Source of the DNA: Candidatus Thorarchaeota archaeon
GTDB taxonomy: Archaea; Asgardarchaeota; Thorarchaeia; Thorarchaeales; Thorarchaeaceae
Length of the DNA stretch: 40,958 nucleotides
Direction of reading: 5' to 3'
NCBI GenBank assembly: GCA_029858305.1
Contig: JAOUFI010000014.1
Location: forward strand, 1-40,958
Each line of letters starts with the position of its first letter. Position 1 is the stretch's first letter. The translations under genes and the position numbers were made by a program. Shown in pieces: positions 3,767 to 26,345 of this stretch. The notes under the pieces were generated by a model, which saw nothing but the letters and a program-made list of their open reading frames with translations, had not been told where the DNA came from and ran no database searches.

Positions 3767-5173
3767 ATGGAGAACTATGATGTGATAGTTGTTGGTGCTG
3801 GTCCTGGTGGATCCATTGCCGCTCGAGAGTCGGCAAAGAAAGGTTTGAAAACTATATTTTTCGAGCGTGGTCGAAAGCCTGGAGAAAAAAATTCCTCTGG
3901 ATGCGGTCTCGGACCAAGAATGTGGCGCGATTTCGATTTTATGACCGAATTGACACCTGAAGATTGCCCCTCACTGCGACCTGGTGCTGCAGCAAGGAAT
4001 TACTTGGTGAATAATGATGGGGAAGTATCAGGCTATCTAATGACAAAGCCAACTGACTCAGTGACATATGAACCAGCTAGAAGTTGGATTACTATGAATT
4101 GTTACAGGAGTGAATTTGATCCTTGGTTGGCTAAATATGCCACAGATGCTGGGGCGGTTTTGAAGACATCGACACTTGTCACTGGTCTCTTAAAAGAGAA
4201 TGGCAAGGTCTCCGGCGTTATTGATGAGAAGGGGAACAAATACAGCGGTTTGGTCATTGGGGCTGATGGCGCAATTTCTATGGTTGCTAGAGAAAGTGGT
4301 TTGCGACAAAGATGGGAGCAGGAACAGGTCACAATAGTTCCACAATATGACTTTGAATGTCCACCTTCAAAAATAGATGATGTCATGGGGGATGAGGCTC
4401 TTGCTGTCTGGTGGTCTGCAACATTTCCAGCAGCATATCAAGTATTCTTCAACGATGGTTTCCACATTGGTCTAGGTAACTGGATGACTTGGTGGGAGAA
4501 GAATCCCATGCACTATCTCAATCAAGTTGTCGCCTTGAAATATTTCCAGCGACAAATCCGAATACTTGAGGCGAAACCACGAGAATTCCAGGTTCATCTC
4601 CTACCATGGCAAGGTCAACCACATGACACACATGCCGATAATGTGATTCTCATTGGCGATGCTGGAGGATTTCCATGTCCACTCGAAGCCGAGGGAATCT
4701 ACCCTGCAATGGTTACCGCTAGAGCCGCAATTGAAACTGCTGTTGAGGCAATATCTGCTGCTGATGTTTCAAAGGAGTTCCTTAATCTTTATGACGCGAA
4801 ATGGAGGGCAACATCCGTCGGTGAGGAGTTCAAGACAGGTCCTGAATTAGCAAGCATCTGGAAAGCGCTTCCATTCAGTCCATTAAAGACGATGTCATGG
4901 TTTGTTCCAATGCTGATGGAAATAATTGGTGGTATCTTTGACTGGTCGGAGCCCCATGCTGTACGAGTCCGACAGATTGCACGCAGAGTCAAGCAGTATC
5001 TTCCTAATGCAATTCCTTTCATTATGAGAGAAGTCATACCATTGTTGACTGCAATTCTCGGAGAAGAGAATATGAATTTACTCACTGATCCTGAGAAACT
5101 CATCGCAGCAATGCCTGAACTCGAAGAAGCTATTGCCCGTTCATTTGTGGAGAATGATATGGAGGAGAAATGA
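3767..5173 (+). CDS. FixC / geranylgeranyl reductase-like FAD-dependent oxidoreductase
   Basis: GAGPGG dinucleotide motif, FixC-like 'ERGRKPGEKN', 'GADG' and 'IGDAGGFPCPLEAEGI'. A GAGGTG RBS lies upstream. Confidence 0.85.
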   Translation: MENYDVIVVGAGPGGSIAARESAKKGLKTIFFERGRKPGEKNSSGCGLGPRMWRDFDFMTELTPEDCPSLRPGAAARNYLVNNDGEVSGYLMTKPTDSVTYEPARSWITMNCYRSEFDPWLAKYATDAGAVLKTSTLVTGLLKENGKVSGVIDEKGNKYSGLVIGADGAISMVARESGLRQRWEQEQVTIVPQYDFECPPSKIDDVMGDEALAVWWSATFPAAYQVFFNDGFHIGLGNWMTWWEKNPMHYLNQVVALKYFQRQIRILEAKPREFQVHLLPWQGQPHDTHADNVILIGDAGGFPCPLEAEGIYPAMVTARAAIETAVEAISAADVSKEFLNLYDAKWRATSVGEEFKTGPELASIWKALPFSPLKTMSWFVPMLMEIIGGIFDWSEPHAVRVRQIARRVKQYLPNAIPFIMREVIPLLTAILGEENMNLLTDPEKLIAAMPELEEAIARSFVENDMEEK

Positions 5174-5445
5174 GTTTGAAGATAGACCATAAGAAACTGA
5201 TAATGCGAATTCCAGGAACAGGGAATTTTATCACGCTTGATAATGAGAAATGTACTCTGTGTGGTCGTTGCTTGATTATTTGTGTGATGAATCTTTGGAA
5301 AAAGAGTGATGACAGAGTGCATCTAGTCGATGACTATGCTTCTCATTGTCTTGAGTGCGGAGCATGTTATCAAGTGTGTGAATCTGGTGCAATTGATTTT
5401 AGATACCCCGCGGGCGGTACAGGAATCGTTTACGCAAAAGGCTAA
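5170..5445 (+). CDS. fixX: FixX-like 2x[4Fe-4S] ferredoxin
   Basis: CTLCGRCLIIC and CLECGACYQVC motifs, plus the C-terminal 'YPAGGTGIVYAKG' typical of FixX. ATGA overlap with the upstream gene. Confidence 0.8.
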   Translation: MSLKIDHKKLIMRIPGTGNFITLDNEKCTLCGRCLIICVMNLWKKSDDRVHLVDDYASHCLECGACYQVCESGAIDFRYPAGGTGIVYAKG

Positions 5446-5467
5446 CAAAATGGGTGAATAATTCAAT

Positions 5468-6913
5468 TTGACAGAAGACATGGTATCTATTATGACCGGT
5501 ATTGTTGGAAGGGACGATGTTTCTGATAACGATGACGTGTTGTCAAAATACTCAGGAAAAACTATACCTTCTCTTGTTGTTTGGCCAAAGACAACTGACG
5601 AAATTGCCCGGATTGTAAGATGGGCGAATTTGAAAAAGATTTCTCTTCTTGTTCGGAGTTCATCAGGACCGAGGCTGCGTGGAGACTGGTTTCCTAAGGT
5701 CGAGAATACTATTATTCTGGATCTAAGTAAGATGGACAGAATTCTACGCATCGACCCACTGAATAAAGTAGTGATGATTGAACCTGGTGTAACATACGGG
5801 AAGCTCTTGAAAGAATTGACAAGAAAGGGACTTCGACCTGCAATACCATTTATTCCTGAGGCTTCAAAGTCTGTTCTATCTGCATGTCTTGATAGAGAGC
5901 CTACGATCATGCCACGATTCCATTGGGATTCCTCAGATCCACTGCTCTGTACAGAAACAGTATTTGGTACCGGAGATGTTTTGCGGACTGGTGCAGCTGC
6001 AGGTCCAGGATCCCTCGAAGAACAATGGGCATCCGGTCAAGCGCAAAAAAATCCTCAAGGCCCATCACAATTTGATCCATTTAGATTGGTCCAAGGGGCT
6101 CAGGGTACTATTGGAATTGTCACATGGATCTCAATGAAATGCGAACAGCTGCCTGAGCACCATAAATTGTACCTTGCAGGTTCCGATAATTTGAACGATT
6201 TCATGGATTTCAACTATGCAGTCCTGCGGAGACGCCTCGCAGATGAACATTTCATGTTAAACAAAGTGAATTTTGAAGCGGCGATAGCAAGCGCTAATGA
6301 TATACCTGAATGGGTACTTGTTATCGGAGTATCTGGTCATGGTATGATAGCAGAAGAGGAGCTTGAATATCGAACTGGCGACATTATGGATATTGCTCGT
6401 GAAACTAATATTATCCTACATGATAGTCTTGGTAAGATTAAGGGAACAGATATCCTAACCCTCCTAAACAAACCTAGTGATGTCGCCTACTGGAAGCTTC
6501 AAGTATACGGTGAGTGTCATGAGATATTTTTCTTAACCACGCTGGATAGAGCGAAAGAATTCTATGAGGTATTTCAAAATACAGCTAACACTGTAGGATT
6601 TCCAATAGATCAGATAGGTGCATATATCCAACCCCTGGCTCAAGGTACGAATACTCATGTCGGATTAGACTTGTTCTATTCACCTGAAGATAAAGAACTA
6701 GTTGAAAAGATGATATCATTATCATCTATGGGTCAAGCTCAATTACTTAACAGAGGCGCATATTTCAGTAGACCTTATGGTTTCATTGTTGATGCAGTGT
6801 TCAAACATGCCTCATCATCCACATTGAGTGCAATGCGTCGTGTGAAGCAAATTTTTGATCCGAGCAACATTCTCAATCCCGGCGCTCTCTGCTTTAAGGA
6901 GGTGCTACAATGA
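5468..6913 (+). CDS. FAD-binding oxidoreductase (GlcD/VAO-PCMH family)
   Basis: 'LVVWPKTTDEI', 'LDLSKMDRIL', 'IEPGVTY', 'GAQGTIGIVT' and C-terminal 'FDPSNILNPG'. The start may instead be the ATG at 5480. Confidence 0.88.
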   Translation: MTEDMVSIMTGIVGRDDVSDNDDVLSKYSGKTIPSLVVWPKTTDEIARIVRWANLKKISLLVRSSSGPRLRGDWFPKVENTIILDLSKMDRILRIDPLNKVVMIEPGVTYGKLLKELTRKGLRPAIPFIPEASKSVLSACLDREPTIMPRFHWDSSDPLLCTETVFGTGDVLRTGAAAGPGSLEEQWASGQAQKNPQGPSQFDPFRLVQGAQGTIGIVTWISMKCEQLPEHHKLYLAGSDNLNDFMDFNYAVLRRRLADEHFMLNKVNFEAAIASANDIPEWVLVIGVSGHGMIAEEELEYRTGDIMDIARETNIILHDSLGKIKGTDILTLLNKPSDVAYWKLQVYGECHEIFFLTTLDRAKEFYEVFQNTANTVGFPIDQIGAYIQPLAQGTNTHVGLDLFYSPEDKELVEKMISLSSMGQAQLLNRGAYFSRPYGFIVDAVFKHASSSTLSAMRRVKQIFDPSNILNPGALCFKEVLQ

Positions 6914-8181
6914 CCCTCAGCGAATTCGAGGATATGATGGATAGTTGTGTTCGATGTTCAAAGTGTAAATTCATCCCACAACTTGTCATTCAGAGCAAAC
7001 GATTCTCGAGCGTTTGTCCTTCAGTCGATTTCTATAATTTTCATGCGTACTCTGGAGGGGGACGCATGATTATGGGAAATGCATACCAAAAGGGTCGCGT
7101 AGAATTCACACAAGAGATGCTAGATGTGCTTTATAGATGTACAAATTGTGGGGGCTGTGAGGTTTCATGCAAATGGGTCTACGACCTCGAACCTAATGAG
7201 GCAATTCATGCGCTCCGTGTTGCGGCTGTTGAAAATGGTGCAGGTCCTATGCCCAAGCACAGAAAGTACATTGAACTTGTTGAAAGAATGAAGAATCCGT
7301 ATGGCGAGAATCCTGCGCAACGAACCTCATGGTTGACTGATGATATTGAGATTGATGCATCTTCAGATACTCTCTATTTTGTTGGTTGCACTGCTGCTAG
7401 TAGACGAGAAGAGATAGCAATAGCTACGGCTAAAGTTCTGAATGCTGCGAAGGAAAAGTTTCGTATAATGGGTTCCGATGAACAATGTTGTGGCTCGCCT
7501 GTCTACAGAGTTGGAGATGAGAAACGTGCTATTCAGATCATGAAGGAAAATATTGCTAGCTTCGAGCAGGCTGGAATAAAGCGCATCATAACTAGCTGCT
7601 CAGGTTGTTATAACATGCTCAAAGTAGAGTATCCTCGATTTGTGGAACATGACATCGAAGTGGTTCATACTGCACAATTGATAGAATCCTTTCTCAAGGA
7701 AGGCAGACTCGAACTAGTAAAAGATGTACCATTGAAGGTAACATATCATGATCCATGTCATCTTGGAAGAATGGCTGAACCATATGAGAAGTGGGAAGGA
7801 GAAAAGATTGAGGTTCTCACTCTCGTGTATATCTATGATCCACCGAAACCTGAGCGTCGAGGCGCGAATGGCGTTTATGATGCTCCCAGAAATGTATTGA
7901 AACAAATTCCTGGTCTCGAGCTAGTGGAAATGGAGCGTATCCGAGAATACTCCTATTGTTGTGGAGCAGGCGGCGGGTGCAAATCTGCCTATCCGGATTT
8001 TGCTCTTACCACAGCAAATGAACGTTTAGAAGAAGCAGAAGCCACAGGAGCAAATACTCTCGTGTCAGCATGTCCCTTCTGTGGTACGAACTTTCTAGAT
8101 GGTATAGAAAACAGGAACTCATCTATGAAATACTATGACCTGATTCAGCTTGTACTACAAAGCATCGGAGGTGAAGAGTAG
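6910..8181 (+). CDS. Fe-S oxidoreductase with 4Fe-4S dicluster and two CCG domains (GlcF/HdrD-like)
   Basis: CVRCSKC, CTNCGGCEVSC, CCGSP, SCSGC, HDPCHLGR, CCGAGGG and ACPFC motifs. Confidence 0.9.
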   Translation: MTLSEFEDMMDSCVRCSKCKFIPQLVIQSKRFSSVCPSVDFYNFHAYSGGGRMIMGNAYQKGRVEFTQEMLDVLYRCTNCGGCEVSCKWVYDLEPNEAIHALRVAAVENGAGPMPKHRKYIELVERMKNPYGENPAQRTSWLTDDIEIDASSDTLYFVGCTAASRREEIAIATAKVLNAAKEKFRIMGSDEQCCGSPVYRVGDEKRAIQIMKENIASFEQAGIKRIITSCSGCYNMLKVEYPRFVEHDIEVVHTAQLIESFLKEGRLELVKDVPLKVTYHDPCHLGRMAEPYEKWEGEKIEVLTLVYIYDPPKPERRGANGVYDAPRNVLKQIPGLELVEMERIREYSYCCGAGGGCKSAYPDFALTTANERLEEAEATGANTLVSACPFCGTNFLDGIENRNSSMKYYDLIQLVLQSIGGEE

Positions 8182-9765
8182 ATGCTTGAGAAGAATGTCT
8201 ATGAGTCTTTCAAGAAAATCGTAGGTGATCAATTCATTTCACAAGATCCGGCAGTGATGGACACCTATGCTTTCCAGTGGTGTAATGAGATTGAGAGTGC
8301 ACAACGAGGAGAAGAGCCTCAGAGGTTCGGAGTTCGTCCTCTTGCTGTTCTTCTTCCTGCCTCGTTAGAGGAAGTCCAGGCCATCGTTAGGCTTTGTAAT
8401 GAACATGATGTCACATTCAAAGCTCACACAACAGGCATGGGTCCTTGGGCTGGTGTCAGTAATCTCCGATCTATCCAGATTGATCTTAGAAGGATGAATC
8501 GAATTCTTGAGATTGATGAGAAGAATATGTATGCAGTAATTGAACCATACGTCACGAATGCAGAACTCCAAAGTGAACTCTTCAGGTATGGACTCATGCA
8601 TCATGCACAGGGAGCAGGTCCTCAGACATCTCCGCTAGCTAGTCATACATCTTTTGTAGGACCTGGCTTTACTTCTCCATATACGGGCTTTAGCGGCAGG
8701 AACGTTCTTGGCGTTGAATGGGTTCTTCCCTCAGGTGACATCCTCCGACTTGGCTCCTATGATTATAATGGGAAATGGTTCTCGGGTGATGGTCCAGGCT
8801 TTAGTCTAAGGGGCATCATGAGAGGATGGCTTGGAGCCTATGGTGGTCTTGGCGTGTTCACAAAGGCTGCTATTCGACTCTTCTCTTGGCCAGCTCCGAA
8901 AGACTGGAAATGGAAGACTGGAGGTACAATTCCTAACTATGATTGGGAAGTTCCTCCATACTGGCAGCTATATGTTTTGAACTTTGAAGAATGGGAAGAG
9001 TACCAATCAGCAATGTATGAGTTGAATGATAGAGAGGTTTGTATGGTTGCCACAACATCTGCTCCTGAGGGTCTGGCAGCCTTGTTCACTAATACAAAGA
9101 CAGAGGCAATCGAGGCTATTTTTGCGGGTCTGCTTGCTAGGACAAGAAATTACATTGTCGTTCTAGTAGCAGCGCATACTAGGCGTGAATTCGAGTTTAG
9201 GGCAAAATTGGTGAAACTCATTCTGGAGAAATATGGCGGTAACGATCTCATTGAAGAAGGGGTGATAACTCCAAAACCAATGCATTATGGCGAAACCGTG
9301 CGCAACATGCTAGGTGCACATGCATTCCGCTTCTCCAATTGTTTCCAAAGCACTCACGGCGGAATGGATACTATTTCTATGGCAGTTAGACTTGCTCAAT
9401 TGAATCAGCCAGTGAAACAGAAGTATATCGAAAAAGGTGTAATTGGTGATGATAGAGGACTCGGTGTTTGGATAACGAGTTATGAATCCGGACACATGGC
9501 TCATATGGAGGTACCAACAGTCTACGATCCCACATCAGTGAAATCTTGCTTGGGCTATGCGGAATATCAAGATGAATGCAACAAAATGGACCTTGATCAA
9601 GCACTTGGCATGCCATTCTTCATAGTAGGTGATGAAGTTCACGAATTCTACGCAGAAAGAACTATGCATTATCCTGATTGGTTGAGAAAGATCAAAGCAT
9701 CTTTTGATCCAAAGGGTCTCTCTGATCCAAGTCACTATGTGAAAGGAGTGAAGAAAGATAAATGA
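8182..9765 (+). CDS. second FAD-binding oxidoreductase (GlcD/VAO-PCMH family)
   Basis: 'AVLLPASLEEVQAIVRLCN', 'IDLRRMNRILEID', 'GGLGVFTK' and 'KIKASFDP'. A GGAGGTG RBS lies upstream. Confidence 0.88.
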   Translation: MLEKNVYESFKKIVGDQFISQDPAVMDTYAFQWCNEIESAQRGEEPQRFGVRPLAVLLPASLEEVQAIVRLCNEHDVTFKAHTTGMGPWAGVSNLRSIQIDLRRMNRILEIDEKNMYAVIEPYVTNAELQSELFRYGLMHHAQGAGPQTSPLASHTSFVGPGFTSPYTGFSGRNVLGVEWVLPSGDILRLGSYDYNGKWFSGDGPGFSLRGIMRGWLGAYGGLGVFTKAAIRLFSWPAPKDWKWKTGGTIPNYDWEVPPYWQLYVLNFEEWEEYQSAMYELNDREVCMVATTSAPEGLAALFTNTKTEAIEAIFAGLLARTRNYIVVLVAAHTRREFEFRAKLVKLILEKYGGNDLIEEGVITPKPMHYGETVRNMLGAHAFRFSNCFQSTHGGMDTISMAVRLAQLNQPVKQKYIEKGVIGDDRGLGVWITSYESGHMAHMEVPTVYDPTSVKSCLGYAEYQDECNKMDLDQALGMPFFIVGDEVHEFYAERTMHYPDWLRKIKASFDPKGLSDPSHYVKGVKKDK

Positions 9766-19772: not shown

Positions 19773-21953
19773 CTACTCCTTGCCTGATTCTTCATGTAAG
19801 AGTGGAAGTGCCCAGTTAGCGAAGACGAATGTTCCACCTATTGCCCAGATACTTGCTAGATTTACATGCCACATCAAGAATGCAATAGTTGTAATTCCTA
19901 GAAACAGAAAAGCTGTTCCTATTACAAGTGCAAATACTACATCCAATATCAACACTGGTTTGAGTGAAGCTCCCTTTGTTTTTCTATATAGTGGGATAGC
20001 AATAGCTAATCCAAGCAATACGGCAAAGCTGACGATTTCCTCAATACGTATCGATGCAAAACCAAAGACACGCTCAATTTCTGCCACATCCCCTTCAGGT
20101 GTAATCATAACAACTCTAACTGTGTGTTCAGTCTTACTGTATAATCCCATATCAATGTAGAAGGTGAAAGCTCCAGATGTTACATCTTCAGTAATATTAT
20201 CATATAGCGGCAAGACTATATCATCAACATACACAGCGACTGTAAGATTATCCCAATCACTTTCAACACTTACTCTAAACGCCGCATTTCCGATTGTCAC
20301 TGCATTTGTTGTAAGAAACCGTAATGTCGGTGCTCCAAGGTTATCAATTACCCAAACCATTGTGAATTTCCACATATAATCAGGGCCAGCATATGCTCGC
20401 AATGTCACATTATGCTCTCCTTCACTAAATTGTGTTGAATCCAGACTAACAGCATTATAGCCAGGAAGTAAAGTTATGTTGTGAAATTCACTAGCTAGCT
20501 GATCATCCACATAAAGTGACAGAGTGACATTATCATAGGGAGTATGGACTCGAATTCCGAATTGAACTTCTCCGGAAACAACGTCATAGTTTGTTAAACC
20601 AGAAATCCATACCCTCACATAATCTAAGAAAATTAGGTTTAGAGTTTTAAGAACAGATGCTCCTTCTCCTGTATATGCGGTGATATTAATCACGTGGTCA
20701 CCGTTCTCATATCTTGAGGTATTGATTGAGTAGTTATATGCGCCAGCCAAAATTACTGTTCTATTGAATTCTTCAGTTATTTCACCATCTACCGTGACAT
20801 TCAGGTACAACTCCGGATGAGTGGAGGTGATGTTCAACCACAAATCAGTTAGACCTGTTACGATGGTATTCGGAGCAGGCGCCAAAATTACAAGAGAAGG
20901 CGCCATATGGTTGTTTATGACGAAGGTCAGATGGTACACTGCACGTGCGTTCTCACCAGTCACATTGTATTCAAAGAGTAGAGTGAAGTTGAGGGTTCCT
21001 TCAGGAAGTACTAAGCTATCAATAGATATGGTCTGCTCTTTGATTCCGATATGAGAGTTGTTGAAATAGGCATACTCTATCACACCATTCACAAATAGTG
21101 TAAAGTTCAGTGGGTCATATTCTGATCCTATAATCAATGTCAGGTTGAAGACTCCTGAAACCATTGTTTGATTGGCAGGACTCAAATGGTCGATAGTGAT
21201 CGGTACTCCATCATTATCAACTAAATACACAAGATGCAGTGCATATGCAAAGTGTGTTGCAAGCAAATCATATTGGAAGTACAATGTGAAATTATCATAT
21301 CCCTCCATGAGGGTGCTTGTATCAACAGCTACACCCAAAACTCCTGTACCTATCAGTGCTGGATTGTAAGATGAGAGGGGTTTACCCTCAACAAAAACAG
21401 TGAGATTGAGTTCGCTATAGTCAGATGTGACATTGATGTTGATATTAATGATCCCACTGATTTTTGTTCCATTTGCTGGTGAGATTAATGAAACATCAAA
21501 ATTCGGACCAGTATTATCAACGAAATAGAGGAGGTAGACTGACTCTTTCTCAGCAAGATACTCAAAGAGTATTGTGAAGTTTAACATTCCCTCAGCTAGA
21601 GTTGCCGAATTTACAGTAATAGTCTGGGTCCAACTAGGGCCTGCAGGAACATTTGTCTTATTATATGAAGGATATATTGCACCATCAACAAATAGAGTGA
21701 TGTTCACTGTAGCAAAATCTGAGGTCATATCTAAAATGATATTGAAAGTTCCTGATACTGGACTACCATTTACAGGACTCGAAAGAGACGCTGTGATATT
21801 TGGGGAATCAAAACCAGCTGTCCTCAGAATGTTGAGCGGAGCGCTCATTTTTTGCGTGTCTTGTGCATATGGCGATATTGTCTGGACTTGGGTACTGCCC
21901 ACAATCATGAATGCGACAAATATGAGCGCCAATAATCTACTTGTTCTTTTCAT
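19773..21953 (-). CDS. secreted, membrane-anchored protein with six Ig-like repeats
   Basis: N-terminal signal peptide, six ~98-aa beta-rich repeats, many N-X-S/T sequons and three C-terminal hydrophobic helices. Confidence 0.8.
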   Translation of the reverse strand: MKRTSRLLALIFVAFMIVGSTQVQTISPYAQDTQKMSAPLNILRTAGFDSPNITASLSSPVNGSPVSGTFNIILDMTSDFATVNITLFVDGAIYPSYNKTNVPAGPSWTQTITVNSATLAEGMLNFTILFEYLAEKESVYLLYFVDNTGPNFDVSLISPANGTKISGIINININVTSDYSELNLTVFVEGKPLSSYNPALIGTGVLGVAVDTSTLMEGYDNFTLYFQYDLLATHFAYALHLVYLVDNDGVPITIDHLSPANQTMVSGVFNLTLIIGSEYDPLNFTLFVNGVIEYAYFNNSHIGIKEQTISIDSLVLPEGTLNFTLLFEYNVTGENARAVYHLTFVINNHMAPSLVILAPAPNTIVTGLTDLWLNITSTHPELYLNVTVDGEITEEFNRTVILAGAYNYSINTSRYENGDHVINITAYTGEGASVLKTLNLIFLDYVRVWISGLTNYDVVSGEVQFGIRVHTPYDNVTLSLYVDDQLASEFHNITLLPGYNAVSLDSTQFSEGEHNVTLRAYAGPDYMWKFTMVWVIDNLGAPTLRFLTTNAVTIGNAAFRVSVESDWDNLTVAVYVDDIVLPLYDNITEDVTSGAFTFYIDMGLYSKTEHTVRVVMITPEGDVAEIERVFGFASIRIEEIVSFAVLLGLAIAIPLYRKTKGASLKPVLILDVVFALVIGTAFLFLGITTIAFLMWHVNLASIWAIGGTFVFANWALPLLHEESGKE
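20060..21800 (-). repeat. six degenerate protein-level tandem repeats (Ig-like); boundaries approximate
   Basis: Repeat starts SPVNGSPVSGTFNI / SPANGTKISGIINI / SPANQTMVSGVFNL / APAPNTIVTGLTDL / GLTNYDVVSGEVQF / TTNAVTIGNAAF. Each is followed by a V[DEN][GD] turn and a later 'xxEG/ENG/KTEH' turn. Confidence 0.75.
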
Positions 21954-22040
21954 TCTGGTGCCTTCCTAAAATCCAATAATCTCTTATCGGGCGGATGGAG
22001 GCAGAGAAATTGCACTGCTTTTAAGCGTAGCGCAAGTTGT

Positions 22041-22095
22041 AGTGTCGTACAAGAGACACTCCATTGATTTTTTTACATATTATAGGAATATGTAA
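22041..22095. promoter_or_regulatory. two inverted repeats upstream of the glycyl radical enzyme gene
   Basis: AGTGTC-N8-GACACT (22041-22060) and a perfect TTACATATT-ATAGG-AATATGTAA (22073-22095), immediately before a TTTTTTAAG TATA-like box. Confidence 0.65.
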
Positions 22096-22109
22096 TTTTT
22101 TAAGACAGA

Positions 22110-24551
22110 ATGCTCATGCCAAGGGTACTTCTCCATGGTGGTGTCTACACCTTGACCCTTGATGAGAACAGTATCCCCTTCATAAAAATCTGGGCACCTT
22201 CTGACAATCTATCTGAACGTGTTCAAAAGCTTAGGACGCACTTCTATTCATTTGCTAGTCGAAAAGAAACCAATGAACCATACTCATTTACAACTGGAGT
22301 CGACTGGGATGAAGTCTACTCCGTCCATGATTGGGCGAATGAACCAGCAATCTATCCTTTCTTTCCCTCAATTAATCAGACCTTGAAATCCATGGTAGTA
22401 AATGTAGATTTACCCGAAGATTATTGGAATCATACTCTGGCAAAAAGGAAAGCCATATTCTTTCATGAAGTCATGACCAAGTATATGCCAGTTATCATAA
22501 TTGATGGAGAGCTGATAGTTGGTTTCAATTTTAATACAGCCCTTTCCAGATCTTTGAACAAATCAGAGACCTCAGCACGGAATAAAGCGATGAAAAAGTA
22601 CTTCAAAGAAGCAACTCGTCTAAACGAAGTTGGCGTGGGTACTGCTTCTGCTGTACCCGGTCATCTTATCCCCAACTATGCAAAGGTCATGAGAATAGGG
22701 CTTCGAGGGATTGCTGAGGAATACGAGGCACTGCTGGAACGTGATTTATCAGCAGAACACCGTGAGTTTGTTGAAGCATTGATTTTGAGTTGTCTTACTG
22801 GAAGAGATGTTGGTCATCGCTATGCGAAGAAAGCGCGAGATCTAGCTTTGAGTGAAACGAATATTCAAAGAAAAGATGAGTTAATGAAGATCTCTGAAAT
22901 GTGCGAAAGAGTTCCTTGGGAGGCACCCACAACATTCTGGGAGGCTTTGCAGTCACTCTGGATAACTCATATGCTTGTGATGGCTGCCGAGTCGTACCCC
23001 GGAGCGGGTCTGTCTCACGGTCGTTGGGATCAATACATGTATCCCTTCTACAAGAAGGATCTTGAATCAGGCGAGATTACCCGTGAGCAAGCAAAAGAAA
23101 TCATGCAGTGTTATTGGATAAAGCACAACTACGTGTATGATTTCCAAGGACGCTTGGGTATTAATCAAGGGATAAATTCAAGCTTTGGTCAGTTGATGAC
23201 CTTAAGCGGTTGCGGACCGAATGGAGAAGACCTGACAAATGACCTAACCTGGTTGGCTCTTGAGGTGATTGATGAAATGAATCTCTTCGAACCAAAGCCA
23301 AATGTTAGACTGCATCGAAACACTCCACAAGATTTTCTTATGCGTGTTGCAGAGATGATATCGAAAGCACAAGGTTCCCCGTTCTTGATGAATTTTGATG
23401 AACACAGCATTGAGGGAATGGTCTGGCAAGGTGTTCCTCGTGAAGATGCGTGGGACTATGGTATTGTCGGATGTCTAGAAAACACGATGCAAGGTAACGA
23501 TCGATCTGATACTGTCGATGTCAACTTCAACCTGGCTAAAGCTGTTGAACTCGCACTAAACAACGGAAAAGACATGGCGACGGGAAAACAAATCGGCATC
23601 AAAACAGGAGACCCTCGTCGTTTTGAATCATATGACCAGTTTTTGGACGCAGTTAAGAAACAAATTGTTGAGCTAATCCGGTTGCTGACAGAATGTGGCA
23701 ACATGGCTGACACAGTGCGAGCGAAGTACCAGCCTACCCCATACCTCAGTGCTCTCATGGATGGATGTGCAGAACGAGGAAAGGATGTCAATGAAGGTGG
23801 TACTGATTGGAACTTTAATACACTTGAAGGCATGGGAATCGCTACTCTAACAGACTCTGTAGCTGCTGTCAAGAAAATGGTCTACGACGAGAAACGAGTA
23901 AGTATGTCAGAACTTCTAAAGGCAATTGAAGATAATTATGATGGGCATGAAGAGCTTCGACAACTTCTCCGTTCAAAGGCTCCTAAATTTGGCAACGATG
24001 ATGATGCTGTTGATAATATCGCCAAAGAACTTTCAATGTTCTGGGCGATGGAGGCTTTTAAACGCAATAATTCCTATACAGGTCGCAGATACCGAGCTGG
24101 GTACCTGTCATGGAACTATTTTATTCCCCTTGCACCACTCACCGCCGCTACACCTGATGGGAGAAGAAGAGGAGAGTTCTTGTCTGGTGGGGTTGGAGCT
24201 GTCCAGGGAATGGATGCAAAAGGTCCGACGGCTTCCATAAGGTCTGTTGGAAAACTTGGTCTTGAAACCGTTCCTAATGGGGCTAGTCACACTATCACTC
24301 TCAGTCCGTCAATGGTGAAGACTCCTGAACATGTCGAGAAGCTTGCTGCATTGCTAAGAGCATACAACGAAGTGGGAGGAACTGCCCTACAGATTAATAT
24401 CATTGACAGCCATACTCTACGCGACGCTCAAAAGAATCCTGATGCATACTCAAACCTAATGGTACGAGTGACTGGATATAATGCCTTTTTCACGCAGATA
24501 GGCAGAGAGTTACAGGAAGAAATCATAACACGTACGGAGCATATCCTCTGA
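22110..24551 (+). CDS. glycyl radical enzyme (PFL2/eliminase-like GRE), substrate unknown
   Basis: Single-Cys loop 'VGCLE', Gly loop 'VRVTGY', plus 'GRWDQY', 'PKFGNDDD' and 'ATPDGR'. The probable real start is the TTG at 22152, after a GGTGGTG RBS. Confidence 0.93.
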   Translation: MLMPRVLLHGGVYTLTLDENSIPFIKIWAPSDNLSERVQKLRTHFYSFASRKETNEPYSFTTGVDWDEVYSVHDWANEPAIYPFFPSINQTLKSMVVNVDLPEDYWNHTLAKRKAIFFHEVMTKYMPVIIIDGELIVGFNFNTALSRSLNKSETSARNKAMKKYFKEATRLNEVGVGTASAVPGHLIPNYAKVMRIGLRGIAEEYEALLERDLSAEHREFVEALILSCLTGRDVGHRYAKKARDLALSETNIQRKDELMKISEMCERVPWEAPTTFWEALQSLWITHMLVMAAESYPGAGLSHGRWDQYMYPFYKKDLESGEITREQAKEIMQCYWIKHNYVYDFQGRLGINQGINSSFGQLMTLSGCGPNGEDLTNDLTWLALEVIDEMNLFEPKPNVRLHRNTPQDFLMRVAEMISKAQGSPFLMNFDEHSIEGMVWQGVPREDAWDYGIVGCLENTMQGNDRSDTVDVNFNLAKAVELALNNGKDMATGKQIGIKTGDPRRFESYDQFLDAVKKQIVELIRLLTECGNMADTVRAKYQPTPYLSALMDGCAERGKDVNEGGTDWNFNTLEGMGIATLTDSVAAVKKMVYDEKRVSMSELLKAIEDNYDGHEELRQLLRSKAPKFGNDDDAVDNIAKELSMFWAMEAFKRNNSYTGRRYRAGYLSWNYFIPLAPLTAATPDGRRRGEFLSGGVGAVQGMDAKGPTASIRSVGKLGLETVPNGASHTITLSPSMVKTPEHVEKLAALLRAYNEVGGTALQINIIDSHTLRDAQKNPDAYSNLMVRVTGYNAFFTQIGRELQEEIITRTEHIL

Positions 24552-25528
24552 TGAGTACAACTGGTATTGTAACCAATATTCAACGGTGTTCAACTGAGGA
24601 TGGTCCAGGTATAAGGACGACTGTCTTCTTCAAAGGATGTCCAATGAAATGTCTCTGGTGTCACAATATTGAAACCATTGATCCAGATCCGACACTTGTT
24701 TGGTATGCAGTGAAGTGCATTGGTGATCAAGCCTGCGTTCGAGCATGTCCAGAGTCTGCTCTCGAATTAACTGCTGATGGCATGAGAATTGATAGAACCC
24801 TCTGCAAAGTATGTGGTTCTTGCGAAGATGCTTGCCCTACCGGAGCAATGAAAGTTATGGGAAAACTCTGGAGTGCAGAAGATCTTGTGGAAGAATTACT
24901 TCGAGACAAGGTGTTCTTCACAACATCAAATGGTGGGGTGACCCTCTCTGGAGGAGAGGCAACTTTCCAAGTTGAGTTTGCTATTCAAGTAGCATCTGGT
25001 CTGCAAAAGAATGGAGTGCATATTGCTTTGGACACTTGTGGTTATTGCAGTGAGGAGAGCTTCCAGAGAATTCTCTCACACGTCGATTTGGTACTATACG
25101 ACCTCAAAGTAATGGACTCTCAGCAGCATAAAGAATACACGGGAGTTCCAATTGAACGAGTATTATCGAATGCAAGGATTCTTGCACAGAGTGGAAAACC
25201 CGTTTGGATAAGAACCCCTGTGATTCCTGGGCATACTGATAGCGAGGAAAATATTCGTGCTATTGCAAAATTCATTGTTGAGAATATGCCAAATGTTGAA
25301 CGATATGATCTTCTCGCCTTCAATAGGATGTGTACGGAAAAGTACACATTATTTGATCTGGAGTATCCCCTGAAAGATACAGAACTAATGACTGACGAAA
25401 CCATGGAGCATTTGGCCGAGATTGCTCGAAAAGAGGGTGTGCCCCTCGTAGCATGGTCTGGAATGACAAGGAATTCTGCTAAAGGTATTTCGACAAAGGA
25501 ACCGGAGGTAAGCTCCTGTGGAAACTAA
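24551..25528 (+). CDS. glycyl radical enzyme activating enzyme (radical SAM) with ferredoxin-like insert
   Basis: 'DGPGIRTTVFFKGCPMKCLWCHN', insert CIGDQACVRAC / CKVCGSCEDAC, and 'GGVTLSGGE'. TGATG overlap with the GRE gene. Confidence 0.95.
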   Translation: MSTTGIVTNIQRCSTEDGPGIRTTVFFKGCPMKCLWCHNIETIDPDPTLVWYAVKCIGDQACVRACPESALELTADGMRIDRTLCKVCGSCEDACPTGAMKVMGKLWSAEDLVEELLRDKVFFTTSNGGVTLSGGEATFQVEFAIQVASGLQKNGVHIALDTCGYCSEESFQRILSHVDLVLYDLKVMDSQQHKEYTGVPIERVLSNARILAQSGKPVWIRTPVIPGHTDSEENIRAIAKFIVENMPNVERYDLLAFNRMCTEKYTLFDLEYPLKDTELMTDETMEHLAEIARKEGVPLVAWSGMTRNSAKGISTKEPEVSSCGN

Positions 25529-26345
25529 TATTCTAAATCAAGAACTCGTAGATGCAATACAAGTTTTCATGACTCCAAAGTTCATGGTAACAAAAGACTC
25601 GAATAACGAGCCAAATGTAGCCTTAGTTATGACTTGGACTATATATGACGAAAACAGACTTGTTTATGGCGACTTCATGACTGTAAAGAGTCGTGAAAAT
25701 CTCATTAATGGAAATCAGAAGATGTCCATTCTTGTCTTTACCTTAGGATTAGATAGCTGGTTGATAAGAGCTGAATTCGAATCGTTTCATCGTAATGATG
25801 ATGTCTATGAATTCATGGCACAAACTCCGTTATTCAAATACAACCAATATACGAACGCTAGAGCCGCTGGAATTGCTAAGGCGATTTCAGCAAGTCAGAA
25901 GTATAGCATCTCCAAACTCGCTGTGCTCTCATCTTTCATAAAGGCACAATTAGCTAAGCGCGGAGTACCCATTGAGGAAACATATGAAGGAAATATGCCC
26001 AAGAATATTTATGATGCATTCTCGAAGATGGCCGCGGTAAAGGTACTTGCGTTTATTGATGCGGATGGATATCCTGTGGCGTTTCCTGAGTTTGGAATGC
26101 TGCCTGTTTCTTCTAATACTATTGTAGTAAAGCGAAAAGAAGAGAAAAGACGAGGATTGCACCTTCATGAAGGCCAGAGAGTTGCAATCTCATTAGTAAC
26201 CCTTGAGCCTGCTGCATTTCAATTAAAAGGTGTATTCCATGAGATCAATGATTCAACTGGGTATATTTGCTTGGACAAAGTCTATGCTTGTTCTCTTCCC
26301 CGTCCTGGTGTACGTGTCGACATACCAATGCTGATTCCAGAATGA
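25518..26345 (+). CDS. tandem pyridoxamine 5'-phosphate oxidase-like (split beta-barrel, flavin-binding type) protein
   Basis: Two related starts, 'PKFMVTKDSNNEPNVA...KSRENL' and 'VKVLAFIDADGYPVA'. GTG start with a GGAGG RBS, overlapping the activase by 11 nt. Confidence 0.7.
   Translation: METNILNQELVDAIQVFMTPKFMVTKDSNNEPNVALVMTWTIYDENRLVYGDFMTVKSRENLINGNQKMSILVFTLGLDSWLIRAEFESFHRNDDVYEFMAQTPLFKYNQYTNARAAGIAKAISASQKYSISKLAVLSSFIKAQLAKRGVPIEETYEGNMPKNIYDAFSKMAAVKVLAFIDADGYPVAFPEFGMLPVSSNTIVVKRKEEKRRGLHLHEGQRVAISLVTLEPAAFQLKGVFHEINDSTGYICLDKVYACSLPRPGVRVDIPMLIPE

Follow-up and report, generated by a model that had tools for sequence, protein, structure and literature searches.

A glycyl radical enzyme of an uncharacterised clade and its putative tandem split-barrel partner in Asgard archaea and bacteria

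Introduction

What kind of glycyl radical enzyme (GRE) is encoded together with a protein made of two split beta-barrels, and what might that protein do? The question is raised by three overlapping genes at positions 22110..26345 of contig JAOUFI010000014.1 from Candidatus Thorarchaeota archaeon (assembly GCA_029858305.1), the whole analysed stretch of which, 40,958 nucleotides in length, is referred to below as the window. GREs carry out key anaerobic reactions, and newly assigned families among them have revealed new pathways, including the conversion of choline to trimethylamine, the breakdown of hydroxyproline, the cleavage of sulfonates and the activation of hydrocarbons. We consider it somewhat more probable than not that the locus encodes a two-component GRE of an uncharacterised family, made up of a catalytic alpha subunit, a split-barrel beta subunit that docks onto it and a dedicated activase. 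The clade to which this GRE belongs is common in Asgard archaea and bacteria and is strongly conserved.

Three coupled genes in a recurring order

Is the trio a real unit? The genes lie on the + strand in the order GRE, radical-SAM activase and tandem split-barrel protein, and each overlaps the next, as seen in the list of open reading frames (ORFs) and in the sequence itself. The gene of the GRE, or alpha subunit (22110..24551, + strand; 813 amino acids), and the activase gene (24551..25528, + strand; 325 amino acids) share one base in TGATG, where the stop of the former meets the start of the latter. The third gene, that of the proposed beta subunit (25518..26345, + strand; 275 amino acids), starts with GTG, overlaps the activase gene by 11 nt and has GGAGGT 8 nt 5' of its start. 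A preliminary description of this DNA, made from the sequence alone, had called the three genes translationally coupled, and the ORFs and their overlaps, read directly, bear this out. It had also remarked on the lack of a gene for a small accessory subunit, and indeed neither the ORF list nor the sequence around the trio holds an ORF of that kind that fits between or beside the three genes. Orthologues of the GRE mostly start 2–14 codons downstream of the annotated start of the window GRE.

A relative of the third gene occurs in 174 of 400 sampled Asgard genomes. Among the best 150 matches to the clade GRE in these 400 genomes (45–100% identity), a third gene is listed for 101 immediately downstream and in the same orientation, with an activase-sized gap in 94 of them and direct adjacency in seven. 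By identity band, the third gene is there in 41 of 47 matches at 72% or more, 19 of 25 at 51–57% and 41 of 78 at 45–49%; the remaining matches, mostly without a listed third gene, can be explained by the weak single-sequence search, by third genes that were not listed and by contig ends. A second sample came from scanning one genome per species for a DNA pattern of the glycyl radical loop, which yielded at least 120 matching stretches, 80 of which were fetched regardless of whether a third gene was present. All but one of these 80 loci hold a clade GRE, and 67 of the 79 hold the third gene; eight loci end too early to judge and four lack it, so that the third gene is present in 67 of 71 assessable loci. 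The order is GRE–activase–third gene in 61 of the 67, GRE–third gene in five and another in one, and adjacency of GRE and third gene without an activase is seen in three fetched Asgard loci as well as in five pattern-found ones. The view of the preliminary description that the partner is a dedicated one with a conserved neighbourhood thus stands.

Going by the titles of their records, the majority of the 80 loci are bacterial, from Anaerolineae, Dehalococcoidia, Chloroflexia and Spirochaetes (Treponema- and Leptospira-labelled metagenome-assembled genomes among them), with further carriers in Deltaproteobacteria, Myxococcota, Bacillota, Bacteroidales, Actinomycetota and Hydrogenedentota; the Asgard carriers among them are labelled Thor-, Hod-, Heimdall-, Sigyn-, Jord- and Promethearchaeota. 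That the system is special to this archaeon, or to archaea, as had been supposed, is therefore not the case, since Chloroflexota, Spirochaetota, Bacillota, Deltaproteobacteria/Myxococcota, Bacteroidales and other bacteria have it widely. A FastTree phylogeny of 94 clade members and two paralogues (support values uninspected) separates the clade from the paralogues and interleaves its archaeal and bacterial members, and within the window's own family the full-length GRE orthologues that were listed are 72–86% identical. The trio is real and coupled, and bacteria and distantly related Asgard families repeat its gene order beyond what chance would give.

Loss of enzyme and partner around a kept activase

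Which of the other two proteins does the third one serve? The activase is a Radical_SAM and Fer4 protein by Pfam and scores 326.1 against TIGR02494 (cut-off 174.35); it has the motif C30-x3-C34-x2-C37 and, at about residues 55–101, a ferredoxin-like insert for two clusters (the Fer4 match), and it falls below all cut-offs of the NCBIfam equivalogs for substrate-specific activases. In its source genome, which is 88.9% complete, it is the only GRE activase above cut-off, as against three PFL-type GREs (PFL being pyruvate formate-lyase), and only the window GRE has an activase next to it. The window activase probably serves all three GREs of the genome, which would explain its survival in relatives without this particular GRE.

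Such relatives are common. Of the 85 genomes in the window's own family, 47 have both GRE and third gene; the GRE is alone in three, the third gene alone in two and neither in 33, and 30 of the latter carry other GREs. Five well-assembled genomes with neither gene were chosen for checking, and all five have a GRE activase and other GREs. In four of the five, the activase (60–73% identical) stands in the synteny of the window, that is ThiN, GNAT-like, 726-amino-acid protein, activase, GNAT, TrpY-like, MFS, Memo and HisRS, with no GRE or third gene on either side of it. One of these four, from the same genus as the window, retains a remnant of the GRE C-terminus, 42 codons long, directly 5' of an intact activase gene (locus L164 8223-8348, G356:C16; 59.5% identity, E 4.6e-10), and directly 3' of that activase gene lies a weak 11-residue match to the C-terminus of the partner (E 1.4), which is not significant alone. 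GRE and partner were thus lost by two deletions around a retained activase, which presumably serves the other GREs. Since enzyme and third gene were lost together while the activase was kept, the partner would serve the enzyme and not the activase, and this correlated loss leads to the testable hypothesis that it is a new kind of accessory subunit. The GNAT, TrpY-like and MFS genes were also considered as parts of the system and rejected, as they are in place when GRE and partner are gone.

Predicted docking of the partner on the enzyme

If the partner serves the enzyme, where might it bind? A complex of the GRE–partner pair was predicted from GRE residues 31–766 and partner residues 7–270, using our own unpaired alignments, and gave a median ipSAE of 0.63 (0.63, 0.55 and 0.71 in the single runs), as compared with 0.00 for the best of three controls; the prediction tool's own mark, which 116 of 157 solved complexes and 2 of 215 mismatched pairs reach, is a rough guide where such alignments are supplied. 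At least 77% of the contacts are common to the runs, and the pLDDT of the partner is at least 85. On the GRE the predicted interface comprises residues 56–57, 65, 78, 80–81, 84 and 86–96, followed by 345–346 and 348–350 and by 672–676; on the partner it comprises residues 53–54, 108–112 and 255–265, which include six of its 14 most conserved positions.

The first of these GRE regions belongs to an insert at residues 43–96 (22236..22397, + strand; helix at 79–94) that is rich in aromatic residues, specific to the clade and, in the model, the docking platform for the third protein. It is present in 21 of 21 aligned clade members and absent from both paralogous GREs of the same genome, relative to which the N-terminal region of the window GRE has gained this insert and lost two segments. 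The aromatic richness of the N-terminus, already remarked upon in the preliminary description, amounts to 14.5% in residues 1–110 and 20.4% in residues 43–96, against 8.7% elsewhere. The second region falls in the YDFQGRLG loop (residues 343–350; 23136..23159, + strand), in which Y343, D344 and G350 are invariant; the adjacent residues 349–358 have low confidence in the model of the GRE alone, as expected for a segment that becomes ordered on binding. The third adjoins GYLSWNYF (residues 664–671; 24099..24122, + strand), with L666, S667, W668, N669 and Y670 invariant. The insert and the loops at 345–350 and 672–676 presumably line the mouth of the active site, as expected from other GRE structures. 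The beta subunit is thus predicted to bind alpha through its own most conserved residues, onto the clade-specific insert and two loops that bear or adjoin signature motifs.

Placement of the enzyme and its catalytic residues

To which kind of GRE does the catalytic chain belong? It matches the Pfam domains PFL-like (PF02901; 510.6 bits) and Gly_radical (PF01228; 93.8 bits), and with its barrel, its glycyl radical domain, RVTG789Y, C455 and a fold at TM ~0.8 to solved GREs, it is a member of the superfamily. Placement among the characterised GREs was based on the cut-offs of NCBIfam hidden Markov models and on comparisons with structures in the PDB, in place of a similarity network or tree. The closest model is TIGR01774 (PFL2-3, the PFL2/glycerol dehydratase subfamily), with 544.9 bits against a cut-off of 678.2 and only profile positions 153–786 matched. 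Much further below their cut-offs are the equivalogs for HypD (506.9 against 1100), two sulfopropanediol dehydratase models (469 and 420, each against 1000), CutC (431 against 1050), indoleacetate decarboxylase (IAD; NF033718, 350.6 against 1100), hydroxyphenylacetate decarboxylase (HPAD; NF033715, 296.4 against 1150) and PFL (TIGR01255, 121.5 against 994.2; NF007437, 400.7 against 1109). The GRE is therefore below every NCBIfam GRE cut-off, and below half of the cut-off for all equivalogs, in keeping with its earlier description as unassigned.

The nearest solved proteins are glycerol dehydratase (GDH; 1r8w, 431.9 bits), HypD (6vxc), propanediol dehydratase (PD; 5i2a), the PFL2 of Archaeoglobus fulgidus (2f3o) and CutC, all at 397–432 bits, followed at a distance by (1-methylalkyl)succinate synthase (MAS; 9o8u, 259.5 bits) and benzylsuccinate synthase (BSS; 4pkc, 192.8 bits), with PFL the weakest at 110.6 bits. 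Structure comparison by Foldseek ranks them in a similar way: the model of the GRE (pLDDT 86.7) reaches TM 0.78–0.80 at 27–30% identity to eliminase structures, with HypD at rank 1 and E values of ~1e-50 for eliminases as against ~1e-36 for the decarboxylases, BSS and MAS. By these measures of similarity the closest solved relatives of the GRE are the 1,2-eliminases with Cys-x-Glu, and not PFL or the alkyl- or benzylsuccinate synthases.

The same genome encodes two other GREs, to both of which the window GRE is 33–35% identical and both of which pass TIGR01774 (736.5 and 698.6 bits); one of them is a HypD equivalog (1251.2 against a cut-off of 1100). This HypD equivalog (locus L002, G000:C205:202706-205060, - strand) has the Cys loop SGCVTIS, with Thr where Clostridioides difficile HypD has the Glu of C-x-E, and no activase adjoins it.

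Which residues the clade retains can be read from 41 aligned orthologues, the identity among them going down to 45%. Invariant in all 41 are H185, Y296, Y343, D344, Q361, C455, N458, T459, T468 and N472, as well as R662, L666, S667, W668, N669, Y670 and G789, and E457 is found in 40, with Asp in the remaining one. The Cys loop G-C455-L-E457 (GCLE, residues 454–457; 23469..23480, + strand) would hold the thiyl-radical Cys and its Glu, and the glycyl radical loop R-V-T-G789-Y (residues 786–790; 24465..24479, + strand) is placed by the alignment and by the DNA pattern for VRVTGYNA(Y/F)F; both motifs had been located correctly before. H185 is in a PGH(L/I)IP(N/D)Y loop (22656..22679, + strand) and aligns in HMMER with the His of GDH, PD and HypD. 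The single Cys455 follows G454, and the adjacent Cys-Cys of PFL is absent; a single Cys is common to all known non-PFL GREs.

The preliminary description had also drawn attention to three unusual segments, AAESYPGAGLS at residues 292–302, YDFQGRLG at 343–350 and GYLSWNYF at 664–671, all of which are present at these positions. The first of these (22983..23015, + strand), with the signature ESYPG(A/P)G.S, stands in place of the G-H-S of the diol dehydratases. Judged by their conservation, these segments are signature motifs of the clade and not noise. The GRE thus has the catalytic set of an eliminase, Cys-x-Glu and the aligned His (C455, E457 and H185), in which the conserved His is known to act as general acid in GRE 1,2-eliminases; it does not have the substrate-binding set of any one characterised eliminase, the G-H-S of GDH and PD being G-A-G here. 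The substrate-binding residues in question are H281 and S282 in GDH. Neither does the GRE group with a characterised enzyme whose full active-site set it shares, nor is the third gene left unconserved beside it, either of which would have spoken against a separate system. The new radical chemistry once proposed for this enzyme does not follow from these findings, its Cys-x-Glu and His set being that of known 1,2-eliminases.

Proposed mechanism

How might the three proteins work together? The activase would make the radical at Gly789, which would pass to Cys455 as a thiyl radical; this in turn would abstract a hydrogen from a substrate carbon that bears OH (or NH). With Glu457 and His185 as base and acid, the neighbouring leaving group could then depart in a 1,2-elimination, and the hydrogen would be returned to the product, in the way known for HypD, CutC and the dehydratases of glycerol and propanediol. 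The beta subunit may gate or complete the active site by capping its entrance. Such a Cys/Glu/His 1,2-elimination is the most economical reaction to propose from residue conservation and the ranking of similarities.

What the substrate might be can be narrowed somewhat. The invariant residues of the pocket are polar and aromatic (Y296, Y343, D344, Q361, N458, T459, T468, N472, S667, W668, N669 and Y670), and FadR-subfamily GntR/FCD regulators flank 20 bacterial copies of the locus. Together these point to a small polar compound, for example a hydroxy acid, a polyol or a sugar derivative. Eight of the 20 regulators were compared with NCBIfam and match only at the generic FadR-subfamily level, far below the cut-offs of the NanR, LldR, FadR, GlcC and PdhR models, so that no effector can be read from them. 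Two metabolic contexts were considered and set aside as too inconsistent to name a substrate: sugar-related genes (MFS_2, Amidohydro_3, GH4, GH127, GH2 and sulfatase) between the GRE gene and the activase–partner pair in some loci of one Asgard family, f22, and acyl-CoA-related genes (three ECH, CoA-transferase, ACAD and AMP-binding), along with scattered hydrolases, near some bacterial loci.

The third protein

What is known of the partner itself? Its model, from an alignment of 65 relatives, consists of two tandem split beta-barrels (pLDDT 94.7, pTM 0.92), the N barrel at about residues 8–125 and the C barrel at about residues 162–257. Among 87 family sequences, 14 positions are conserved at 90% or more, the six at the predicted interface being F53, Y108, Y111, Y256, P260 and P261, and the conserved motifs are (R/K)Y-x-x-Y at 107–111 and Y-x3-PP at 256–261. 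Among 1.84 billion representatives searched, 158 clusters match it, most of them full-length at 20–34% identity and one labelled Nezhaarchaeales.

Each barrel resembles HupZ, the FMN-binding protein of Desulfovibrio vulgaris, PNPOx-like proteins, PhdC and F420 reductase at 11–20% identity in Foldseek, with probability 1.0 and TMt 0.71–0.82 for single barrels, which places both in the split-barrel fold. The Pfam model PNPOx_N is matched by 47 of 65 relatives at E<=0.01; the window protein itself scores 25.9, just below the gathering cut-off of 28.1, its C half alone scores 18.9 bits and its N half alone has no Pfam match. The earlier description of a split-barrel protein as a 'flavin-type partner' is therefore right as to the fold, while its flavin part does not follow from a PNPOx_N score short of the cut-off. 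A more daring version of the two-component reading would have beta hold a flavin, a deazaflavin or another redox cofactor over the substrate channel, so that the substrate radical is reduced or oxidised during turnover; we hold this to be decidedly doubtful. All PFL-type GREs known to us catalyse redox-neutral eliminations, additions or cleavages, and the enzyme would, if this version were true, be the first of the PFL type with a net redox reaction and a built-in redox subunit.

Alternative explanations

Other roles for the third protein must be weighed against that of a docking subunit. It could be a coupled flavin- or deazaflavin-dependent reductase or oxidase of the split-barrel type that consumes a reactive carbonyl or enone product of the GRE or prepares its substrate, possibly while bound to it. 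The known GRE eliminases release aldehydes or ketones, which call for a further enzyme, and the Asgard and bacterial loci compared show no other enzyme conserved beside the trio; the likeness of the barrels to FMN-binding and PNPOx-like proteins, F420 reductase and the prFMN maturase PhdC, the PNPOx_N matches of most relatives and, within the N barrel, the sequence K-(S/T)-x-x-N-L with a conservation of 70% or more would all suit such a role. Yet PNPOx_N stays under its cut-off and the N barrel unmatched, the residues conserved at 90% or more fall at the predicted GRE interface and form no recognisable flavin motif, and the structural neighbours also include the haem-binding HupZ, so that we regard a coupled redox enzyme as unlikely, if well short of negligible. 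Rather improbable, in our estimate, is a low-potential electron donor that takes the place of flavodoxin and reduces the Fe-S cluster of the activase. The protein shares its fold with small FMN proteins that transfer electrons, but four of five related genomes keep the activase without the third gene and still need activation for their other GREs, GRE and third gene are adjacent without an activase in the three fetched Asgard loci and the five pattern-found ones mentioned above, and the complex prediction, made for the GRE–partner pair, puts the conserved residues of the partner on the GRE.

Several observations count against the two-component reading, and two of them favour the electron donor at the same time. 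Four assessable loci have a clade GRE and no third gene nearby, and the Asgard locus L030, where the third gene is also missing, carries a gene for flavodoxin at a distance of ~1 kb from that of the GRE. In the Asgard family f22, activase and third gene are often paired while the GRE gene is 2–13 kb off or on another contig (the pair is kept with the GRE displaced in L033, L035-L038, L040 and L042), a pattern that also fits a partner of the activase, though all three genes are still linked there. Only two GRE candidates were scored per genome in the Asgard survey, which makes some of its 'absent' calls soft, and the complex was predicted with a GRE cut to residues 31–766, hence with the Gly loop missing, and with unpaired alignments; the tool itself describes such a result as support for binding and not as proof of it. 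As for the reaction, the eliminase assignment depends on three conserved catalytic residues and overall similarity, the substrate-binding residues H281 and S282 of GDH are replaced, and Cys-x-Glu occurs in GRE decarboxylases too.

This last point leads to the alternatives for the enzyme. A decarboxylase of the arylacetate type, comparable to HPAD, IAD or PhdB and with an aromatic acid as its substrate, in which the partner replaces the small subunit, would share Cys-x-Glu and would suit the aromatic-rich segments that line the active site. In the window's family the trio is followed by genes for a regulator of the TrpY family (156.5 bits, with the cut-off at 180) and an MFS transporter, and the FadR-subfamily regulators beside the 20 bacterial copies belong to a group in which the characterised members respond to carboxylates. 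The decarboxylase models and structures nevertheless match less well than those of eliminases (IAD 350.6 of 1100, HPAD 296.4 of 1150, Foldseek E ~1e-36 against 1e-50), and loss of the GRE leaves the TrpY-like and MFS genes in place, so that they are not tied to it; we find this alternative quite improbable. An alkyl- or benzylsuccinate synthase (Ass/Bss) is very improbable: BSS and MAS reach 192.8 and 259.5 bits against 431.9 for GDH, with Foldseek E ~1e-36, ORFs for small beta or gamma subunits are lacking beside the trio, the Cys loop has the Glu of eliminases and the eliminase His is conserved, while a single Cys is shared by all known non-PFL GREs. This label has nevertheless been published for single-Cys GREs of Hermod- and Thorarchaeota by Zhang et al. 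2021 (PMC8163825), where it is based on 29–33% identity to AssA/BssA and the single conserved Cys, and Firrincieli et al. 2021 (PMC8072921) follow it. Most improbable of all is a pyruvate or 2-oxoacid formate-lyase, the usual annotation in Asgard genome papers: homologues are named 'pyruvate formate lyase family protein' or 'formate C-acetyltransferase', but the adjacent Cys-Cys is absent, TIGR01255 gives 121.5 against 994.2 and PFL structures are the weakest match (110.6 bits). In these two papers and in the MK-D1 preprint (10.1101/726976), Asgard GREs are labelled Ass/Bss, pfl or 2-oxoacid formate-lyases, the formate-lyase labels being those of PMC8072921 and the preprint; if these labels include the present clade, claims on formate transfer or alkane degradation need revision.

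Neighbouring genes

Upstream of the trio, an AT-rich intergenic region (21954..22109, no strand assigned) with TATA-like boxes 20–35 nt before the ATG separates the GRE gene from a divergent one and, going by its sequence, is a probable promoter of the GRE gene. The divergent gene (19773-21953, - strand) encodes a 726-amino-acid protein without Pfam or NCBIfam match, found in the same synteny in four other genomes of the family at 44–54% identity, with or without the GRE. Further off in the window (3767-9765, + strand), a PadR regulator gene is followed by flavin and Fe-S genes that all point the same way, in the order FAD_binding_3, small ferredoxin with 2x[4Fe-4S], FAD_binding_4, Fe-S protein with a CCG domain and FAD_binding_4 once more, similar to complexes of the glycolate or D-lactate oxidase type.

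In family f22 the trio lies among genes for DUF447, archaeal DHNA (PF04038), Pterin_bind+DUF4346, DUF1464, GHMP-like and AIRS-like proteins, and this methanopterin-biosynthesis-like cluster (with QueC-like too) directly adjoins the activase–partner pair in L024, L025, L027, L028 and L040. DUF447, a single-copy gene, is found at most 3 kb downstream of the third gene in 40 of 67 listed f22 cases from seven genera; in one genus none of 17 third-gene copies is linked to it. Methanopterin-type genes were not found to flank the trio in the other Asgard families, the window or the bacterial loci compared, and an hhalign comparison of the partner profile with DUF447 gave no sign of kinship (probability 0.1). 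For these reasons a link to tetrahydromethanopterin synthesis was rejected as the general function; the arrangement in f22 is most simply explained as synteny inherited within one family.

Two single loci differ in their layout. One f22 genus (L041 8685-9047, G149:C1) has the order GRE, partner, SCP2 sterol/lipid-carrier-like gene and activase, and at another locus (L016 11311-12444, G116:C31) an IS605 OrfB/TnpB-type gene in three ORFs (HTH_OrfB_IS605, OrfB_IS605, Cas12f1-like TNB) lies just 3' of the trio.

Comparison with known systems

How does the two-component GRE proposed here relate to systems already described? GDH and PD are not known to have an accessory protein. The best matches are these two diol dehydratases, that is GDH DhaB1 with its activase DhaB2 from Clostridium butyricum (1r8w) and PD (5i2a/5i2g), at 431.9 and 402 bits, TM 0.80 and ~30% identity. 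Like them, the window system has a ten-stranded barrel, a Gly loop, a Cys loop of the form G-C-x-E, the aligned His and an adjacent two-cluster activase; in contrast, their G-H-S is ESYPGAG in the window GRE, whose N-terminal 165 residues remain unaligned in HMMER, with the insert of 54 residues gained and two segments lost. HypD (6vxc), CutC and the A. fulgidus PFL2 (2f3o), at 418.5, 397 and 401 bits, share the eliminase-type architecture, but the window GRE scores less than half of the HypD and CutC cut-offs and its genome has a separate HypD equivalog.

In BSS the small subunit lies close to the path by which the active site is reached, and the subunits of BSS, MAS and HPAD are small Fe-S proteins. 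An extra protein on the catalytic chain is the principle that BSS alpha-beta-gamma (4pkf), MAS (9o8u) and HPAD with its small subunit (2y8n) have in common with the window system, in which, however, the partner is a tandem split barrel of 275 amino acids; their catalytic chains are also the most distant of the window GRE's matches among PFL2-type structures. The preliminary description had found the partner unlike that of any GRE operon it recognised. As far as the literature search described below goes, this is so for its split-barrel type, whereas accessory subunits as such are known for some GREs.

Of the partner's own structural neighbours, small FMN-binding split-barrel proteins such as that of D. 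vulgaris (2e83 and others) and Swol_0183 (3in6), together with HupZ (5esc/7kq2), superpose on each of its halves (TMt 0.71–0.82, rmsd 2.3–3.3 A). Identity to them is 14–20%, and the window partner differs in fusing two barrels in one chain; among the PDB matches listed, only single barrels superpose well, and full-length alignments are poor at rmsd 14–20 A. A full-text literature search, in which papers on Asgard or flavin-related GREs were judged by title and start of abstract, gave no description of a GRE with a split-barrel partner. The only PNPOx-type protein in a GRE operon that it brought up is LssP, described as a putative PNPOx-like protein of stated unclear function in the limonene lss operon, alongside a fumarate-adding GRE (PMC12583861). 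That operon is large and its enzyme of another kind. Set beside all of these, the locus apparently represents an undescribed variant of the GRE systems, which combines a separate catalytic clade with a new kind of accessory protein.

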